This document shows positions 1 to 7,706 of a stretch of 64,000 nucleotides of DNA, piece after piece (the stretch's first letter is position 1; every line of letters begins with the position of its first letter). The DNA is from a virus (lineage: Duplodnaviria > Caudoviricetes), in IMG/VR virus record IMGVR_UViG_3300050821_001527, positions 1-64,000 of that record; one strand, written 5' to 3'. The notes beneath the pieces were generated by a model. The model was not told the DNA's origin. It searched no databases and worked only from the letters and a program-made list of their open reading frames with translations. The position numbers and the translations under genes were made by a program.

Positions 1-18
1 CCGTCAGACTACTTTTAT

Positions 19-25
19 GTGTAAT
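19..25 (+). promoter_or_regulatory. putative phage late promoter motif GTGTAAT upstream of HNH gene
   Basis: GTGTAAT 7 nt before ATG at 33; same motif and spacing as upstream of the structural genes. Confidence 0.5.
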
Positions 26-32
26 TGATGTT

Positions 33-584
33 ATGACACATCAAGGATACAGAGTAGATTTGACGGGGAAAAAGTTCAACCATTTGACCGTGCTAGGGTA
101 TGCGGGACAGATGGCAAACGGTAGAAAGAATAGCGTCTGGAATACCCGTTGCGATTGCGGGCGAGAGAAAATAATCGAAGGCAGAAGCCTTACGTCGGGC
201 AATACCAAAAGCTGTGGATGCGCGGAGTTTAAGCGCGAGTTTATGAAGGCAGCGTTGGGCAAGGGCATAGGGCAGTTGACGGGTGCAACGTGGAGCAGGC
301 TCAAGGGTAATGCAAGGGCCAGAGGCATTAAGGTAACTGTCACTAAACAACAGGTGGCAGACCTGTTTGAAAAGCAGCAAGGTAAGTGCGCTTTGTCAGG
401 TTTGTTATTGGTGCTGGACGCGCCGGTTGGTCAGGTCACGGCCTCGCTTGACAGGATAGACAGCGATAAGGGCTATGAGCCGGGTAACGTGCAATGGTTG
501 CATAAAGAAATCAACTGGATGAAAAATACGTTTAGTCAGACTCGATTTATTGAACTGTGTAAAGCAGTTTCAAACACTGTGTAG
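33..584 (+). CDS. HNH-type homing endonuclease (N-terminal CDCG/SCGC Zn module plus C-terminal HNH-like domain)
   Basis: DLTGKKFNHLTVL..RCDCG..TKSCGC N-terminus; ASLDRIDSDKGYEPGNVQWLHKEINWMK nuclease motif. Confidence 0.8.
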   Translation: MTHQGYRVDLTGKKFNHLTVLGYAGQMANGRKNSVWNTRCDCGREKIIEGRSLTSGNTKSCGCAEFKREFMKAALGKGIGQLTGATWSRLKGNARARGIKVTVTKQQVADLFEKQQGKCALSGLLLVLDAPVGQVTASLDRIDSDKGYEPGNVQWLHKEINWMKNTFSQTRFIELCKAVSNTV

Positions 585-668
585 TCATAACCCCAGTTGG
601 CGGACTGGGCAACAGAAACCGCCCTCGATTTTCCTTGACAATAGGTGAGAAGTCTATAGGATAGATAC

Positions 669-839
669 ATGAACAGTGATTACCTTAATGGCCGTTTGGG
701 TGTTTACCACCTGATTAATACCAAGACCGGCAAGAAGATTGGCCGCTCGGTTGAACTGCGTTCCCGCGAGGCCAGCGCCAAGAACGAAGCTTTCGGAATG
801 AACAAGGTCAGCAAGAAATACGTCCTCTACGTCGAATAA
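669..839 (+). CDS. hypothetical protein (56 aa, not in ORF track)
   Basis: MNSDYLNGRLGVYHLINTKTGKK...; ATG 6 nt after the -10 box TAGGAT. Confidence 0.7.
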   Translation: MNSDYLNGRLGVYHLINTKTGKKIGRSVELRSREASAKNEAFGMNKVSKKYVLYVE

Positions 840-851
840 CCTAATCCAACA

Positions 852-1202
852 ATGAAACCCCATAACGGAACCCGCACCATCACCACCCTCGTCCCCACCA
901 TTGTCCCCGTCATCGTCTTTACCGAGCAGGAAGTCAAGCTCGAACTGCGCCCTTGGAAAATCAGTGAAGTCCCTGTCGGGGCGTTCATCAAGTGCCACGG
1001 CGACCGCATTCAGCGCATCATCGGGGTTGACCCGAAGCATTCCAATATTCAGGAGCCTGCCGTGCTTCTGAGCAATGCCAAGTATCGTGGCGGCGACGAC
1101 CATTACTTCCTCTGCGACTTGGTAACGCGCATCTTCGACCACACCTATTCGCTGGATGGCGTCAACTGGCACCGCTGCGGCGTGTGGGAAATCGTCAAGT
1201 AA
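852..1202 (+). CDS. hypothetical protein
   Basis: 116-aa ORF in + early operon, codon style like neighbours. Confidence 0.7.
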   Translation: MKPHNGTRTITTLVPTIVPVIVFTEQEVKLELRPWKISEVPVGAFIKCHGDRIQRIIGVDPKHSNIQEPAVLLSNAKYRGGDDHYFLCDLVTRIFDHTYSLDGVNWHRCGVWEIVK

Positions 1203-1268
1203 TTCCTTGACACGAAACGAAAGTTACCCTAAGATTTAGTAACGTCAAAAACAAACAACCCAAATCAA

Positions 1269-1475
1269 ATGAATAAACTACTCTGGTTCCTGTTCAACTG
1301 TTTCATCGCCCTCTGCGCGTGGACGATTCATGCCGCCGATGGTTACGGCCCCGTCGGAAACTTCCTGTGGTGCATCGTGGACTGGCTGTTCTCGCCCATC
1401 GTGTTCCTCTACTGGCTCTGCACCCACCAGTTGACCCTGCCCGTCATCAAGGCCACCTTCGCGTGGTTCTGGTAA
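1269..1475 (+). CDS. small membrane protein
   Basis: 68 aa, two hydrophobic Trp/Phe-rich segments; follows promoter at 1207. Confidence 0.7.
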   Translation: MNKLLWFLFNCFIALCAWTIHAADGYGPVGNFLWCIVDWLFSPIVFLYWLCTHQLTLPVIKATFAWFW

Positions 1476-1478
1476 GCC

Positions 1479-1631
1479 ATGCGCTTCAATAAATCCAAGA
1501 GGGGCTATACCCTTATCGAGTTGATTGTCACAATCGGCATCGGTATAGTCCTTCTGAGCCTGCTGGTCGAAGCAATCATCGTGATTGGCGGGTTGTGTGT
1601 CGGTGCCCATTTCATCCACAAATATTGGTAA
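1479..1631 (+). CDS. mini prepilin-like protein (type IV pilin N-terminal cleavage/methylation motif), 50 aa, not in ORF track
   Basis: MRFNKSKRG|YTLIELIVTIGIGIVLLSLLVEAIIVIGGLCVGAHFIHKYW: basic leader, G at -1, aromatic at +1, E at +5, hydrophobic helix. Confidence 0.8.
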   Translation: MRFNKSKRGYTLIELIVTIGIGIVLLSLLVEAIIVIGGLCVGAHFIHKYW

Positions 1632-1641
1632 AGCGACCATT

Positions 1642-1839
1642 ATGGAATTGACCAAACAAGACGCCTTAAAAGCGATTCAGGACGACAAGGCAAAGTTCAT
1701 CGAGGAAGCCCATATCGCCAAAGACTGTTGGGAGCTAACATACGAGTTCAATGGATACCGTATTTTTGTTGGGGCGTTTGGGTATGACCGTTGGCTGGAC
1801 GATGACGCCAATAATGTTCGTATTGAAAAGATTTCTTGA
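1642..1839 (+). CDS. hypothetical protein
   Basis: MELTKQDALKAIQ...; start moved from the track's 1585 to the ATG after the upstream stop. Confidence 0.6.
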   Translation: MELTKQDALKAIQDDKAKFIEEAHIAKDCWELTYEFNGYRIFVGAFGYDRWLDDDANNVRIEKIS

Positions 1840-1870
1840 CAACAACCGCGTAACCTGATAGTTTAATGCC

Positions 1871-2077
1871 ATGAACAATAATACCAAGTCCCGCAATGCC
1901 CGCCGTCACAAGGAACTCCGCAAGTCGGGGTTCGCCAAGCCGGTTTACCGCAAGAAAGCCAAGCCGTTCCCCCTCGTCAACAAGGGCGAGAAGGCCGAAG
2001 CCTTGGTCACTCTGCGCCACCAGCGCCACGTCTTTCACGGGACGCCCTGTGACTGCGCCGTCCTCCAACCCAAGTAA
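1871..2077 (+). CDS. small basic hypothetical protein
   Basis: K/R-rich 68 aa; own promoter at 1836. Confidence 0.65.
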   Translation: MNNNTKSRNARRHKELRKSGFAKPVYRKKAKPFPLVNKGEKAEALVTLRHQRHVFHGTPCDCAVLQPK

Positions 2078-2080
2078 CCC

Positions 2081-2371
2081 ATGAACAAGATTGCATTGAT
2101 ACTGGGGGTTGTGGTTGTTGGTTTGCTGGTTGGCTGCTCCCCACCGGACTTCATCGGCGGCGAAGTCGTCACGACTAAGAGCCAAATCAATTCGGACGTA
2201 TCAAGGGAGTCTTTGATTCGCACGGATGGGGCGGTTTATTCGTTCCTTCACACCGGGAACCTCAACAGTCCCACGGTCATCCTGCCCGCTCGTTTCGCGG
2301 AAGTCGGGGACACCATCAAGTTCACCAACGGGGTGCTGTCCGCATTCCCGCCCAGCCGAAACAGGGAATAA
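2081..2371 (+). CDS. putative lipoprotein
   Basis: MNKIALILGVVVVGLLVG|C lipobox-type signal peptide. Confidence 0.65.
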   Translation: MNKIALILGVVVVGLLVGCSPPDFIGGEVVTTKSQINSDVSRESLIRTDGAVYSFLHTGNLNSPTVILPARFAEVGDTIKFTNGVLSAFPPSRNRE

Positions 2372-2377
2372 CCAAAT

Positions 2378-2560
2378 ATGAGCAAAAAGAACACCAGTCC
2401 CACACCCGAGAAACCCACCCGCATTGATGGTCTGTGCCGCTGCTGCGGACGCGGATTCCTGTTGGAGAGGGGTTTGACGCCCGAACACACGATTCGCAAG
2501 GCCACGTCCCCGGCCACCGTCCTGTGTAGGGGTTCGCACACCAAGGCCGAAGGGGTGTAA
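2378..2560 (+). CDS. small Cys-containing hypothetical protein
   Basis: CRCCG...CRGSH, 60 aa. Confidence 0.55.
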   Translation: MSKKNTSPTPEKPTRIDGLCRCCGRGFLLERGLTPEHTIRKATSPATVLCRGSHTKAEGV

Positions 2561-2612
2561 ATACCCGCCAAAATAAATTGACTTTGGCAGAAATACAGCG
2601 TAGAATATTATT

Positions 2613-2987
2613 ATGTTAATCTCCATCAATCCCGCGTTGCTGCGAAAGCTCAACGCAATTCGTCGTCAGAACGGTGAGCCTGAAATCGCCCGCCAATTCG
2701 TCGCCCAACTCGTTGTCGAGAACCTGATTCAATCGGCTTTCGAGGCGTCCGGCGCACCAACCGACCCGTGGGGCAACCCGATTGACCCATCGGCCATCAT
2801 CAAGACCGTCTCGTTTGTCTATGACAAGTCCGCGAATGCGTGGGACAAGAACCTCAAGTGGCGCACCGTCCAAGTCACCGAGGACACCCGAGAATATATT
2901 CAGGGCTATGACGTGGATGACGGCTTCAAGTTCAAGAAGTTCCTCAAGTCCAAGATTTTCGGCGGCAAGATTATTGTGTTGTCGTAA
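2613..2987 (+). CDS. hypothetical protein with WYL-like C-terminal domain
   Basis: VSFVYDK..KWRTVQV..EYIQGYDVDDGFKFKKFLKSKI follows the WYL pattern (FxY..R.V..Yl.a.d..R.F..rI). Confidence 0.5.
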   Translation: MLISINPALLRKLNAIRRQNGEPEIARQFVAQLVVENLIQSAFEASGAPTDPWGNPIDPSAIIKTVSFVYDKSANAWDKNLKWRTVQVTEDTREYIQGYDVDDGFKFKKFLKSKIFGGKIIVLS

Positions 2988-3029
2988 TCGGCCTCCGACC
3001 CTGAGAAAGCAAAAACTCACATGAGAGTT

Positions 3030-3066
3030 CCCCCGGTGCTGAAAGGTGCCGGGGGTTTGCTTTTTT
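3030..3066 (+). terminator. intrinsic terminator
   Basis: CCCCCGGTGC-TGAAAG-GTGCCGGGGG hairpin followed by TTTGCTTTTTT. Confidence 0.75.
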
Positions 3067-3105
3067 ACCCTTGACAACCATTAGCTTCCTTGGTAATCTC
3101 TGACC

Positions 3106-3303
3106 ATGAAAATCGTATGGTCAAAACCTGATGAAGCGGACGATGGTTCGTTCGACCTGTGTGGGAAGTTCAATGGCAAATACGTTGATGTAGTTCAGCG
3201 CCACGACAGCACTTGGTCAATAAGTTTTAATGGCCAGCGTATCGAGTCAGGCATTCCCACCCGCGAAGAAGCTAAAAACAAAATCATTCAATTCCTTCAA
3301 TAA
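3106..3303 (+). CDS. hypothetical protein
   Basis: 65 aa, own promoter at 3071. Confidence 0.7.
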   Translation: MKIVWSKPDEADDGSFDLCGKFNGKYVDVVQRHDSTWSISFNGQRIESGIPTREEAKNKIIQFLQ

Positions 3304-3306
3304 CTT

Positions 3307-3720
3307 ATGATTACTTGGCTGCAAGTCCGAAACGAAATCCACCGCCCCAAAGACTCCTATGACCTTGCTTTCGGCGAGCGTCAAACCATCTGGATGCGCG
3401 GGGAGTGGTCAATCGTTGAACAGATGGGACAATACAACTGCTCCTACATTCTCATGCGTAATTTCGTGCCCCTGATGCACACCGCCCTGCCCGCCGACCT
3501 CGTTCATTACATCAACGCCTTTTGGGATACCCCGGCCATCACGCCCGAAGTCCACGAAGACAACATCGAACGCATAATGCAGACCGCCTGCACCGTTGAA
3601 TGCCCTGTCAGCCGCAAGGAGCAAATCATTCATGTGGTTGGTTTCTATACGGGGTTTTGTTCGGGGCGTGGCTGGACAATCAACTGGCAGAAACTCAACG
3701 CTTGGAAGGACAGGATTTAA
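3307..3720 (+). CDS. hypothetical protein
   Basis: 137-aa ORF coupled to upstream gene. Confidence 0.7.
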   Translation: MITWLQVRNEIHRPKDSYDLAFGERQTIWMRGEWSIVEQMGQYNCSYILMRNFVPLMHTALPADLVHYINAFWDTPAITPEVHEDNIERIMQTACTVECPVSRKEQIIHVVGFYTGFCSGRGWTINWQKLNAWKDRI

Positions 3721-3761
3721 TTTCCCTTGACAATCACAATCAACCCTGATAATCTCACACC

Positions 3762-4181
3762 ATGAACAAAGTCAAAATCACCTATCAAAGCTACGGCTCC
3801 GCGATTCTGTTGTATATCGAAGGAGCGACACCCCAAGACGCCAACGGTCAATACCTGTCCATGTGGAACTGGAATTGCACGTCCAGCAACCCCGACTGGA
3901 TTACCAAGAATGTTCTCGCGGTTTGGTCGAGCGTCGAACGCCTCAAGAAATACCTGCTCACCATGCGCCAGAACGAGCTTGAGGACACCAAGGCCCAAGT
4001 GCCCAACCGCCCGCTGGAAGCCAAGCGTCTCGCTGAACTGGACTTCGCCGGGATTGGCCGTGAGTCCTATCGCTCCGTGAACAACAACACGGAAGTCGCT
4101 GAGTTCGGAACCCCTAACGCCGAGAGGGAAGATTTGGACTTTAAGGATGAGTGTTACAAGGCTGCGTTCGCGTCCACGTAA
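3762..4181 (+). CDS. hypothetical protein
   Basis: 139 aa, own promoter at 3727. Confidence 0.7.
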   Translation: MNKVKITYQSYGSAILLYIEGATPQDANGQYLSMWNWNCTSSNPDWITKNVLAVWSSVERLKKYLLTMRQNELEDTKAQVPNRPLEAKRLAELDFAGIGRESYRSVNNNTEVAEFGTPNAEREDLDFKDECYKAAFAST

Positions 4182-4767
4182 GACTGTCGTTCTTCGACAG
4201 GTTATCTTTCTCCCACAGCGGTTGGAGATTGCTGAAATGAAAGCACTCCTTCTGCTGTCGGGGGTCAGATAAGTCGAACGAGGCACAGGGTTTTACGTGG
4301 TCAACATGCCAGTCGCCGTAATTTTCCCATGTCATTCCGAGCTGAAACTGGCCACTAATATGAGCCTTCAACTCAGAAATAGAACAACCAACCAAAGCAA
4401 AGGTTCTGTCGGTCTTACGGGTATTTTGGTCTTTAATCAAACCCCACAGCCTTCGTCGTAAATTCAGGGCGAGTCTATTATGGGGAATGCTTCTATACTT
4501 ACGTTGGTATAATAGATTTTCAAGCTTGATTTGTGGGGCGTGGGATTTTCTGTATTTCTTCCTGTGGGTTTTGATACGTTCGGGGTGGAGCGCGGCGAAT
4601 CGTTTCCAATTTGCGTTGAGTTGCTGTCTGTGGTTCGAGCCATACTCCTTTAAATAAGCAGCATTACAGGATAGGCACTGGGCACCGTAGCCAGATTTAG
4701 TCTTCTTAGTCTTGACGAACTCGTTTTCTTCTTTTAGTGTGTGGCATTTTGTGCAAATCTTCTGCAT
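4141..4767 (-). CDS. HNH homing endonuclease (paralog of 23748..24344)
   Basis: N-terminal CxxC..CxxC; GMTWENYGDWHVDHVKPCASFDL..HFSNLQPLWEKDNLSK. Confidence 0.85.
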   Translation of the reverse strand: MQKICTKCHTLKEENEFVKTKKTKSGYGAQCLSCNAAYLKEYGSNHRQQLNANWKRFAALHPERIKTHRKKYRKSHAPQIKLENLLYQRKYRSIPHNRLALNLRRRLWGLIKDQNTRKTDRTFALVGCSISELKAHISGQFQLGMTWENYGDWHVDHVKPCASFDLSDPRQQKECFHFSNLQPLWEKDNLSKNDSLTWTRTQPCNTHP

Positions 4768-4774
4768 ACCTTAT

Positions 4775-4781
4775 ATTACAC
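4775..4781 (-). promoter_or_regulatory. putative late promoter motif GTGTAAT
   Basis: GTGTAATATAAGGT-ATG on the minus strand upstream of the HNH gene. Confidence 0.5.
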
Positions 4782-4888
4782 ACGAAAACTGCATAAGGGG
4801 CAAATAATAACAAATGAAAACGCAAATATACCCAAATATGGGATGGGGTGTTTTACGGGGTTGGATAGGGGTCTAATGGGAGGGTGTG

Positions 4889-4954
4889 TAAGTGCCTGAG
4901 TATCAACGACTTGCGCGGGACGCCCCGCGTAAACCCCTGATTATCAAGGGCTTA
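4889..4954. repeat. double-dyad intergenic element, copy 1
   Basis: TAAGTGCCTGAGTATCAACGACTTG-cgcgggacgccccgcg-TAAACCCCTGATTATCAAGGGCTTA (25+16+25); its last TTA is the stop of 4952..5125. Confidence 0.92.
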
Positions 4955-5125
4955 CAGAAGACATTCGGGAATATCGTCCTCCCCGTAGTGTTTTTTCCAG
5001 TATGCCCACATTAAACGCATGGTCATTTCCGTCATCCAATAGCCATCGTTCATTGCATACCAGACTTTCATGCGTTCCAAACGCTTGAAGTCTTCCGGGT
5101 CGCCGATAAGGTTGGGGTTTACCAT
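4952..5125 (-). CDS. hypothetical protein (57 aa, not in track)
   Basis: MVNPNLIGDPEDFKRLERMKVWY...PECLL; stop lies inside element 1. Confidence 0.6.
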   Translation of the reverse strand: MVNPNLIGDPEDFKRLERMKVWYAMNDGYWMTEMTMRLMWAYWKKHYGEDDIPECLL

Positions 5126-5322
5126 TTGATTAGGCGGTAGGTTTCAGCAAGGTAGGGGCGGGCACCGCTCGCACCAAGCAAGACGCATACCAGATGAGTG
5201 GGCAAAACCATGTGGACTCTCGCCTTGACGGATTTCCATTCCTGCCCGAAACGGCCCCGGCCATTGGGGATTTGGATTTCCACGATACTGCGGACGCGGG
5301 CTTCTTTATTGGATGTGGACAT
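5119..5322 (-). CDS. hypothetical protein
   Basis: 67 aa, overlaps both neighbours in operon fashion. Confidence 0.6.
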   Translation of the reverse strand: MSTSNKEARVRSIVEIQIPNGRGRFGQEWKSVKARVHMVLPTHLVCVLLGASGARPYLAETYRLIKW

Positions 5323-5455
5323 AAACGATGTTGCTGTCTTTGCTGATTTTGTAGTTGACGCCGTAGTCCTGCAATTCCTTCACCAGAATAGCAAACCAGC
5401 GGGCTTGCTCAGGCTTGGCAATGTTGAACTCCATTGATTCGTCGCTCTTATTCAT
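5306..5455 (-). CDS. hypothetical protein (49 aa, not in track)
   Basis: MNKSDESMEFNIAKPEQARWFAILVKELQ... Confidence 0.55.
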   Translation of the reverse strand: MNKSDESMEFNIAKPEQARWFAILVKELQDYGVNYKISKDSNIVYVHIQ

Positions 5456-5467
5456 GGGCAAAGAATA

Positions 5468-5845
5468 TCAGATGTGAATAGCCATGTCAAGCCCCAATTC
5501 CACCAGTTTGCGCTGCCACATGATTTCATTCAGGGCCGACCATGCGCTATGCAGGCGGGAATGGGGGTGCTGAATGACTTCGCGGTGCAAGTCGTGGACG
5601 TAATCATTCGTGACTGGCTTCCAGCCCACGGACATGCACTGATACCATTGCCCGTCCACTTTCACGCAGTCATTGACCGACAGTGAGCGCATACGATTAC
5701 CGAGGAAGTAATCACACTCGACTTGGGAACCCGCGTTGAACCATGCGAAGACCGCTTCAAGCACTTCCGACGCGGGGCCGGTCAGTGAACAGGTCAGCGT
5801 ATGGTATTTATCGCCGGGATAGCAGACGGTGAAGGTGCGAATCAT
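5468..5845 (-). CDS. YodL-like domain protein
   Basis: LEAVFAWFN..MRSLSVNDCVKVDGQWYQCMSVGW (RSLSVxDxV motif); start set at the ATGA overlap with the upstream gene. Confidence 0.6.
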   Translation of the reverse strand: MIRTFTVCYPGDKYHTLTCSLTGPASEVLEAVFAWFNAGSQVECDYFLGNRMRSLSVNDCVKVDGQWYQCMSVGWKPVTNDYVHDLHREVIQHPHSRLHSAWSALNEIMWQRKLVELGLDMAIHI

Positions 5846-6132
5846 AGGGTGGGGGCGTTCAGACGTTGTTTGAGGAAAATTTGCCAGTTGTAAACCTGCT
5901 TGTGGCATTCGTCAACCTGACAGACATGGAAGGAGATGCCTTCCGCGCCACTGGAACCGTCGCGGACGCGGACATACCAGCGGTTCATTCCATCTTCGGG
6001 CTTTTCCAGTTTGCCATGCAGACGGATATGGATGCCGTTTCCATCTTCGCAGTCATCGCCAGCGGCGACTTCGACTTCTTGACCGACCAGTTCATTCAGC
6101 TTGGCCAGTATTGCTTCGGGGGTGTTAATCAT
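5842..6132 (-). CDS. hypothetical protein
   Basis: 96 aa; promoter TTGACA(6167-6162)-N17-TACTCT, 6 nt to ATG. Confidence 0.7.
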   Translation of the reverse strand: MINTPEAILAKLNELVGQEVEVAAGDDCEDGNGIHIRLHGKLEKPEDGMNRWYVRVRDGSSGAEGISFHVCQVDECHKQVYNWQIFLKQRLNAPTL

Positions 6133-7151: not shown

Positions 7152-7706
7152 TTAAACCGGCTTGTCAAGCACAATTTTCAATTCATCCACGCAGCACAAC
7201 AACTGCGCTCGCACGTATTTGAACAAGTCCGGGTCGCCGTCCACCAAGTTGGGCAACACGCGGGCCTTTTCCTTGATATACGTGACGGCAAAACCGGGGT
7301 CATGCTGCACGATGGAATTGGTGTTGTTATACAAGTCGGCCAGCTTGATTTTCTTGGCCGATTTGCCGATGGTGGCCAAGCGAGCCGCTTCCAAGACTTT
7401 TCTCTCCATGCGGTTCAAGTCCGGGTAATTCTGCGGCGTGTATAAGTCGGTCAACTCATGCACAATCAGAGCAATTTCGGTGCCAAACTCGCGCTCCAAC
7501 TGCCCGAAAGTCGTTTCGGTATCTTCCAAGGTATCGTGCAAGTGCGCGGCGGCGATTTCGGTTTCGGTGCCACCGTAAGCAGCAACTATGCCAGCCACCG
7601 CATCAGTATGCGTCCAGTATGGGGTGCCGTCATACTTGCGGACTTGTTTAACCGCGTCATGGGCGGCGTGTGCGAAGGCTTGCGCTCTGGTAATCAAATC
7701 AGTCAT
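7152..7706 (-). CDS. HD-domain small alarmone hydrolase (RelA/SpoT HD, Mesh1-like)
   Basis: AFAHAAH..QVRKYDGTPYWTH..AAAHLHDTLEDT..IKLADLYNN. Confidence 0.88.
   Translation of the reverse strand: MTDLITRAQAFAHAAHDAVKQVRKYDGTPYWTHTDAVAGIVAAYGGTETEIAAAHLHDTLEDTETTFGQLEREFGTEIALIVHELTDLYTPQNYPDLNRMERKVLEAARLATIGKSAKKIKLADLYNNTNSIVQHDPGFAVTYIKEKARVLPNLVDGDPDLFKYVRAQLLCCVDELKIVLDKPV

Follow-up and report, generated by a model that had tools for sequence, protein, structure and literature searches.

The 64,000-nucleotide (nt) stretch of DNA analyzed here (the window) comprises bases 1 to 64,000 of the IMG/VR virus record IMGVR_UViG_3300050821_001527, which is 202,882 bp long and has a CheckV completeness of 91%. 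The record represents a tailed phage with a recognizable large terminase, and no close relative of it was found among 50,697 deposited phage genomes. Our subject is a 50-codon open reading frame (ORF) near its left end, at positions 1479 to 1631 (+), which encodes MRFNKSKRGYTLIELIVTIGIGIVLLSLLVEAIIVIGGLCVGAHFIHKYW and which we call the mini-prepilin gene. The original prediction, made from the sequence alone, had described its product as a headless prepilin produced together with a small membrane protein and had suggested a pilus poison or a peptidase decoy; the translation that it quoted is exactly the one obtained here. The gene, its parts, and its immediate neighbors are as follows (HMM, hidden Markov model).

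1207..1235 (+): promoter-like site, sigma-70 type, TTGACA-17-TAAGAT (consensus scan, 10 of 12 matches), ahead of the small-gene unit
1269..1475 (+): gene for a 68-aa hydrophobic, Trp-rich protein (ORF list), the upstream partner of the mini-prepilin gene
1479..1631 (+): mini-prepilin gene, 50 codons plus stop (ORF, HMM matches, codon bias, homologues, AlphaFold2, and RNA contigs)
1479..1505 (+): leader MRFNKSKRG, net charge +4, with Gly-1 last (sequence; the N_methyl HMM aligns residues 5 to 29)
between 1505 and 1506 (+): predicted prepilin-peptidase cut (inferred from class III features, PMC4471445)
1506..1607 (+): hydrophobic helix of the predicted mature peptide, starting YTLIEL (AlphaFold2, hydropathy profile)
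1518-1520 (+): codon for Glu5, within the helix, where residue 31 is another Glu and a Gly-Gly hinge precedes the tail
1608..1628 (+): C-terminal tail HFIHKYW at the very end of the protein, the family signature (family alignment)
1642..1839 (+): gene for a 65-aa soluble protein (ORF list), the last gene ahead of the next promoter-like site

Berry and Pelicic (2015, PMC4471445) define the class III signal by a hydrophilic leader of 6 to 26 residues, the last of which is Gly, and by a hydrophobic run of ~21 residues with Glu5, and the mini-prepilin agrees with this definition in leader, Gly, hydrophobic run, and Glu5. Its leader has 9 aa and a net charge of +4, Gly9 occupies position -1 and is followed by Tyr at +1 and Glu at +5, and Glu5 is the sole charged residue from +1 to +21. 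Every element that the original prediction had listed (basic leader, G-1, aromatic +1, E+5, and hydrophobic helix) was seen, and both of the profiles that it had named as a check scored above their cutoffs: 26.3 bits versus a gathering cutoff of 21.2 for PF07963 (N_methyl) and 17.7 versus 16.3 for TIGR02532 (NCBIfam). The mini-prepilin was the sole N_methyl match in six frames of the 202,882-bp record (E = 1.3e-6), with no match at E ≤ 1 in the rest of the record or in ~680 kb of ten other phage records, and a regular expression for class-III-like N termini matched 1 ORF in the genome versus 0 in 100 shuffles.

AlphaFold2, run with the alignment of the family described below, predicted that the leader is disordered and that residues 12 to 49 form a single helix (mean predicted local distance difference test score, 88), with no further structure, which bears out the earlier claim that the globular pilin head is absent. 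Type IV pilins and pseudopilins are "lollipops" with an alpha1 helix of ~50 residues plus a globular beta-sheet head; the predicted mature mini-prepilin has only 41 aa and no head. Nor did it resemble the Flp/Tad (type IVc) pilins, which are recognized by G/xxxxEY and Flp_Fap: position +6 is Leu rather than Tyr, and there was no Flp Pfam match. The source phage encodes no prepilin peptidase (Peptidase_A24), and no pilus or secretion ATPase (T2SSE) match over the cutoff was found in it, so only host proteins could process or use the signal. Prepilin peptidase cleaves after Gly-1 at the cytoplasmic face, Gly-1 being critical for cutting, while Glu5 is not needed for cleavage and is required for assembly into homopolymeric filaments (PMC4471445). 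The peptide is probably cut by the host prepilin peptidase.

A family of phage peptides with a common C-terminal tail

The search for homologues that the original prediction had proposed revealed a family, with members in cultured Aeromonas and Stenotrophomonas phages, of 31- to 73-aa phage peptides consisting of one hydrophobic helix that ends at the C terminus in HF[ILV]xK[FYW]W. The family is apparently undescribed. A word-free phmmer search of 1.84 billion representatives returned the query and two short proteins, P0002 (43 aa, 58% identity to the mini-prepilin) and P0003 (64 aa, 47% identity), which align from the prepilin motif to the last residue and have in common GYTL[IL]EL and the C terminus G-x-HFIHK[YFW]W. 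A profile search gave 33 proteins of 36 to 73 aa, every one ending in [AG]xHF[IL]xK[FYW]W, and the His, Phe, Lys, and final Trp of the tail are invariant in 36 of the 36 members of the resulting alignment (A4), a count shaped in part by the way in which candidates were gathered (see below). When IMG/VR was scanned with a DNA pattern for tail plus stop, 12 matches were obtained, including five short membrane-helix ORFs (four distinct) that end in HFIHK[FY]W; all five lack the prepilin motif, and one lies in a 360-kb contig. Overall, family members occur in IMG/VR contigs of 14 to 360 kb. The tail pattern, in its HFIHK form only, had 9 matches and no membrane peptide in 185,579 bacterial species genomes (596 Gb), in which ~7 chance matches are expected at uniform base composition. 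Within the 203-kb source record, HFIHKYW occurs once.

About half of the members, 16 of the 36 aligned (44%) by their N_methyl match, carry the canonical prepilin signal (basic leader, G-1, Phe or Tyr at +1, E+5) and are referred to here as prepilin type; the others carry the tail only. Three other Pfam families matched one member of the 36-sequence alignment each, weakly, and none of them was of Flp type or recurred. Tail-only members sometimes resemble decayed motifs: P0029 has KFTPTEIV, and P0019, P0030, and P0033 have KGF or KGL but lack the Glu. Because the C-terminal halves of prepilin-type and tail-only members are sometimes mutual nearest neighbors (P0022 and P0023; P0038 and P0028), the comparison suggests that the prepilin motif has been gained or lost repeatedly and that these are not two separate families.

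The prepilin-type members are built of two conserved islands, the prepilin motif and the tail, joined by a variable spacer. In 17 diverged members of this type, pairwise identity was 72% from -1 to +7, 21% in the helix interior, and 78% over the last seven residues. Glu5 is invariant among them. Mature peptides are predicted to have 31 to 41 aa, and in 9 of the 17 the predicted mature length is 34 aa, so that 23 residues, roughly a membrane's thickness of helix, separate Glu5 from the tail's first His; spacer length is constrained. Conservation of the motif, together with a Glu5 that is invariant though dispensable for cleavage, favors mimicry of the pilin assembly interface.

The family was found in cultured phages of several kinds. 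Aeromonas phage vB_AdhS_TS3 (Demerecviridae, T5-like) has an unannotated 37-codon ORF, MKRAKGFTLIELIFCILALGLLGGGGYVVIHFIAKFW, at 7483 to 7596 of OP820700.1 (L096:4001-4114), in a gap between two annotated coding sequences; its start codon shares bases with the stop codon before it (TAATG), and a hairpin rich in GC lies 3' of the ORF. In Aeromonas phage Ahp1_CNU-2021 (Straboviridae, T4-like), the member is the 42-aa annotated hypothetical protein QIW87140.1, with ...TGFTLIEM... and the tail HFVTKYW. Stenotrophomonas phage C121 (Schitoviridae, N4-like) encodes C121_12, a 36-aa protein with no prepilin motif and the tail HFISKFW. HFIAKFW is a further tail variant in cultured phages, and the 462-kb uncultured phage LR756500.1 has a 52-codon tail-only ORF. 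No member from a Pseudomonas phage was retrieved by tblastn with family members as queries.

Genomic context points to a gene that travels alone. In a complete 42-kb IMG/VR phage (L090:4771-7102), a tail-only member at 5809 to 5907 lies directly upstream of a gene for a tyrosine-recombinase-type integrase, called from a weak Phage_integrase match under the Pfam cutoff, and its other neighbor encodes a 340-aa protein without a Pfam match. Accessory genes are often found next to integrases. The family gene is near the left end of the record in the source phage, in TS3 (7.5 kb in), and in C121 (3.1 kb in). The family-bearing IMG/VR records that we searched had no terminase and no neighboring genes in common with the source phage, and the 68-aa and 65-aa proteins encoded beside the mini-prepilin gene were absent from the other family-bearing records, leaving no partner gene. 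Since neither terminase nor neighbors are shared, the family gene is a stand-alone accessory gene that moves between unrelated phage lineages. Relatives by terminase (53 to 76% identity, L002-L020) are fragments of ≤44 kb, and the five largest had no N_methyl match; these fragments may not reach the mini-prepilin region and so say nothing on conservation within the clade.

Existing resources see the family only through its N terminus. PHROGs of short prepilin-like phage proteins (phrog_10597, 59 positions; phrog_13280, 67; phrog_11263, 72; and phrog_3433, "pilin") matched prepilin-type members only, via residues 1 to 25, that is, via the N-terminal motif. The mini-prepilin itself had no PHROG match at E ≤ 0.01, and five tail-only members scanned singly had none either; the tail family is unrepresented in PHROGs v4 and Pfam. 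These PHROGs show small phage proteins that start with a class III signal to be recurrent. The "pilin" genes of the T4-like Synechococcus phages ACG-2014f and S-CAM7, which correspond to phrog_3433, match by the N-terminal motif only and belong to another lineage. A literature search found no paper containing the tail strings. No full-length pilin carrying the tail was found, and among 8000 candidates scored no longer protein ended in it except P0043 (a 112-aa gene call), the final 34 residues of which form a prepilin-type mature part; this is weak evidence on mimicry of a host C terminus.

Several other searches were uninformative. INPHARED DNA and tblastn searches with the locus and the 50-aa peptide returned nothing, the low-complexity filter probably masking the helix; tblastn succeeded with other family members as queries. 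A near-length word search with the single 50-aa peptide returned only the peptide itself, back-translated IMG/VR scans with it and with a neighboring 116-aa protein returned no relatives, and a metagenome scan was swamped by ordinary pilin N termini, with no tail among at least 51 loci. Matches of P0023 in Klebsiella phages were discarded as chance, as they are antisense to a coding sequence and lack the tail, and a match in a Pseudomonas Elvirus lies inside a long coding sequence. Two short prepilin-like ORFs in IMG/VR contigs L022 and L023 were set aside as a different kind, because they lack the HFIHKxW tail. These ORFs (L022:9986-10207 and L023:9995-10240, 73 and 81 aa, MMRPYRGYTLIELLVVVAIIATLA...) are in high-GC contigs, and a 288-aa ORF, which we guess to be an integrase, lies on the opposite strand ~35 nt away in L022 and ~0.9 kb away in L023. 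They may represent a further line of headless pilins or a pilin-like gene that an integration event interrupted.

Gene status, transcription, and neighborhood

We regard it as almost certain that 1479 to 1631 is a real gene and a member of this family, and conservation is the strongest evidence for gene status. The ORF has an in-frame codon log-odds score of +0.25 per codon (neighbors, 0.08 to 0.47), versus about -0.9 to -1.0 in the two shifted sense frames. It is very short, and a 125-codon antisense ORF overlaps it with a similar codon score there, as might be the case if it were a chance ORF or the dead fragment of a captured host pilin gene. The antisense ORF scores about zero over the upstream gene, however, and reads like an Asp/Glu/Gly-rich shadow of genes rich in G or C at third codon positions (GC3). 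Moreover, both termini and the length are conserved across homologues from many unrelated phages, full-length pilins with the tail are lacking, the codon bias is in frame, the genes are tightly packed, and contigs from RNA libraries cover the locus, so that a chance or dead ORF is hardly credible. The exact 50-aa protein had already been called by JGI/IMG and by Logan, complete with a precomputed PF07963 match; "unannotated," as the original prediction had it, is therefore not strictly correct.

RNA contigs that are 100% identical to the window cover 1024 to 1638 (X3) and 1254 to 2410 (X4) and come from two soil metatranscriptome libraries of two studies; X4 bridges the mini-prepilin and 65-aa genes. 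Within 1 to 6000, RNA-contig cover was absent at 401 to 1000 and 3001 to 3600. Contig depth was 7 to 8 in RNA libraries of 0.24 to 0.30 Gb versus 11.4 in a DNA library of 3.5 Gb, so that, per base sequenced, RNA cover of the locus was 7 to 11 times that of the DNA run. At this ratio DNA carryover is hard to invoke, although the samples differ and the comparison is only suggestive. X4 starts at 1254, ~12 nt past the start predicted from the -10 hexamer, which is a weak hint of initiation there, given that contigs do not show ends. Transcription of the 68-aa and mini-prepilin genes together from the promoter at 1207, as originally proposed, agrees with the promoter-like site and with RNA contigs over both genes, but X3 enters from upstream of that site, and the 1207 promoter thus need not be the sole source of the transcript.

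The mini-prepilin ATG is 3 nt past the stop of the 68-aa gene, and the gene ends 10 nt ahead of the 65-aa gene; this left end of the phage is rich in promoter-like sites. No Shine-Dalgarno sequence was found at any gene in 600 to 3000; as genes of this phage do without a ribosome-binding site as a rule, its lack is no argument against the ORF. At 669, 1871, and 2613, a -10 hexamer lies only 6 to 8 nt before the ATG (sites 635-669, 1838-1871, and 2578-2613). This spacing and the lack of Shine-Dalgarno sequences suggest that early mRNAs may be leaderless or have a very short leader. The 68-aa gene has a codon log-odds score of +0.21 per codon and a GC3 of 0.87, and its product, judged by composition, would be a membrane protein; its C terminus is likewise aromatic (...ATFAWFW). 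The 65-aa gene scores +0.35 per codon. Neither product matched a Pfam family. Cys-rich ORFs lie on either side of the small-gene block, at 33 to 584 (+), with a subthreshold Pfam match only, and at 4141 to 4767 (-), which has an HVDH...N pattern and may encode an HNH-type endonuclease.

Possible modes of action

We propose, at a probability of roughly 45%, that the 50-aa peptide is a headless mimic of the pilin stem through which the phage, early in infection, interferes with the type IV filament machinery of its host. The peptide would enter the host inner membrane with its N terminus inside, and host prepilin peptidase would take off the 9-aa leader after Gly9. The 41-aa mature peptide would then resemble the pilin alpha1-N stem, and its aromatic and basic tail would pin it to the outer side of that membrane. 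Residue 1, Glu5, and the stem would contact a pilin-pilin or pilin-platform interface, and the headless, anchored stem would stall or corrupt the assembly of a type IV filament, which may be a type IV pilus, a type II secretion pseudopilus, or a competence pilus. The likely payoff of such early action would be that pilus-dependent competitors are excluded or that a surface function of the host is shut down. That a headless stem pinned by its aromatic/basic C terminus serves as a chain terminator or plug is plausible. As to the target, we place a type IV filament machine a little short of even odds; the invariant buried Glu5 in so minimal a peptide argues that the stem is read by a pilin-stem reader (pilin, platform, or methyltransferase) and not merely cut. 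The pilin-centered view of the original prediction survives to the extent that the class III signal is bona fide and the gene is real and stands beside a membrane-protein gene; it had not noticed the tail, and about half of the family does without the prepilin motif.

Several observations weigh against stem mimicry. About half of the family joins the same tail to an ordinary N terminus, and the shared function may accordingly sit in the tail and need neither peptidase nor pili. P0005, a metagenomic member of the P0002 cluster, has Arg at -1 (MNFKRYTLIEL...), which should prevent cleavage and which would reflect a sequencing error, a dead allele, or the fact that cleavage is not essential. The 50-aa peptide is itself atypical of the prepilin-type members, being the longest (41 aa mature, with a spacing of 30) and having a 7-residue insertion with the second Glu. 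To some extent the profile search itself ensured an invariant tail, its candidates having been gathered by shared 5-residue words; the word-free phmmer search and tblastn found the same tail and are independent of this bias, and natural tail variants were seen. Finally, the RNA data are assembled contigs that show neither strand nor ends, and the RNA and DNA libraries are from different samples.

In a different reading, the tail is the effector: HF[ILV]xK[FYW]W at the membrane surface would bind an inner-membrane or periplasmic host target unrelated to pili, such as a DNA-entry channel, a protease or PDZ domain that reads aromatic C termini, or a sensor, and the anchor would be interchangeable, the prepilin signal being one of several ways to orient a short peptide and trim its N terminus. 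The tail is the best-conserved segment and is there in all A4 members, with or without the prepilin motif; the C-terminal halves of both types can be nearest neighbors, some motifs look decayed, the C121 and LR756500 members lack the motif wholly, and P0005 has its Arg at -1. Yet a class III signal, a rare and very specific means of anchoring, is found in 44% of members, and a simple anchor has no need of the buried acidic residue that Glu5 places, invariantly, inside the membrane helix. No host protein with the same tail was found for it to mimic, which is weak evidence, and members that are not prepilins could hit the same machinery, as the nonprepilin PfsE (discussed below) does. We consider a tail effector a serious contender, though we lean against it.

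The peptide might instead act as a decoy, the second function suggested by the original prediction, by competing as a substrate of a PilD-type peptidase, or being poorly released from it, so that host prepilins and pseudopilins are left unprocessed. Its recognition features (basic leader, Gly-1, and aromatic +1) are canonical, and the phage has no peptidase of its own. A decoy would have no use, however, for a Glu5 that is unneeded for processing and still invariant in the prepilin-type members, nor for a fixed helix length and a conserved tail, and the members without the prepilin motif cannot act in this way. We judge a decoy improbable.

A broader version of stem mimicry would hold for the whole family. 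Peptides of ~35 aa might constitute pan-phage "pilin stubs," matured by host prepilin peptidase into an N-terminally trimmed alpha1-N helix and locked in the membrane by HFIHKxW, that serve as a portable plug or chain terminator for type IV filament machines (pili, type II secretion, competence), with tail-only members as derived forms that reach the same machine unprocessed; such stubs would have spread over T4-like, T5-like, N4-like, jumbo, and temperate phages. We find this extension doubtful.

Comparison with known systems

The closest precedents come from Sztanko et al. (Cell Rep 2026; PMC12952977). Six virulent Pseudomonas phages carry a truncated PilA ("P-PilA") that consists of the N-terminal ~60 residues only, for which the proposal is either that it is incorporated but offers phages no surface to bind or that it keeps pili from being assembled and so excludes superinfection early (PMC12952977). 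P-PilA and the mini-prepilin are both headless pilin stems encoded by virulent phages, and the pilus effect is inferred in both. Unlike P-PilA, which is described as host-PilA-like, the tail family resembles pilins in the ~27-residue class III motif alone, is shorter (31 to 41 aa when mature), and has its own conserved tail, a distinction that is drawn from P-PilA's description only. The F10-like Pseudomonas prophages encode P-FimU, a protein with a prepilin signal that enters the type IV pilus and blocks adsorption of other phages; in contrast to the mini-prepilin, it is a full-length minor pilin with a globular fold that replaces FimU and leaves pilus function intact (PMC12952977). The use of phage pilin-like proteins against other phages and the idea of a block by a headless fragment are already published. 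What appears to be new here is the tail-defined family, its split into members with prepilin-type and with ordinary anchors, its breadth over phage lineages, and its presence, in one case unannotated, in cultured phages.

PfsE of the Pf filamentous phages is a 30-aa inner-membrane peptide with its N terminus inside and an aromatic cluster needed for function, which binds PilC and thereby blocks pilus extension and gives superinfection exclusion (PMC8764522). The HFIHKxW tail and the class III signal differ from the YxWGW of PfsE, a comparison that is by analogy only and uses the motifs as PMC8764522 describes them. Like PfsE, the members of the tail family would be very small phage inner-membrane peptides with the N terminus inside, and they have a conserved aromatic cluster; by this analogy PfsE is the best functional counterpart of the tail-only members.

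Little beyond an alpha1 helix is also what characterizes Geobacter PilA-N (PDB 9egp) and the Flp/Tad pilins. These are cellular, filament-forming proteins, PilA-N working with its partner PilA-C, and Flp pilins, of 40 to 60 aa, have the G/xxxxEY motif and a dedicated peptidase. They raise the possibility that the mini-prepilin is a minimal pilin that the host machine polymerizes into a filament or adds to its tip, altering the surface rather than blocking assembly. Headless or nearly headless pilins do exist, and the best PDB matches of the peptide, weak ones, were a PilA and the 69-aa "Geopilin domain 1 protein" 9egp, the latter via the N-terminal motif. Furthermore, the phage-encoded FimU is incorporated without loss of pilus function (PMC12952977). 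Unlike PilA-N and Flp pilins, however, the mini-prepilin has no partner gene, has Leu at +6, and has no Flp-type motif or Flp Pfam match. In most members the mature peptide (34 aa) is barely over one membrane span, and the aromatic/basic tail looks like an interface anchor that would resist extraction. We consider a polymerizing minimal pilin very improbable.

Among the major phage receptors are type IV pili and type II secretion, which also serve bacteria in colonization or virulence. To our knowledge, few phage inhibitors of them are known (Tip, Aqs1, PfsE, Zip, and P-FimU), almost all of them from Pseudomonas phages. If stem mimicry is correct, a peptide of ~34 residues would, by entering the pilin pathway, be the smallest modulator of this kind, and it could be used to probe directly how the alpha1-N stem and Glu5 are recognized, both by the peptidase and by the assembly platform. 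The family is a widespread microprotein that gene callers and family databases overlook, Pfam and PHROGs having no model for it, and it makes an orphan ORF of a soil phage testable through its members in cultured Aeromonas and Stenotrophomonas phages.

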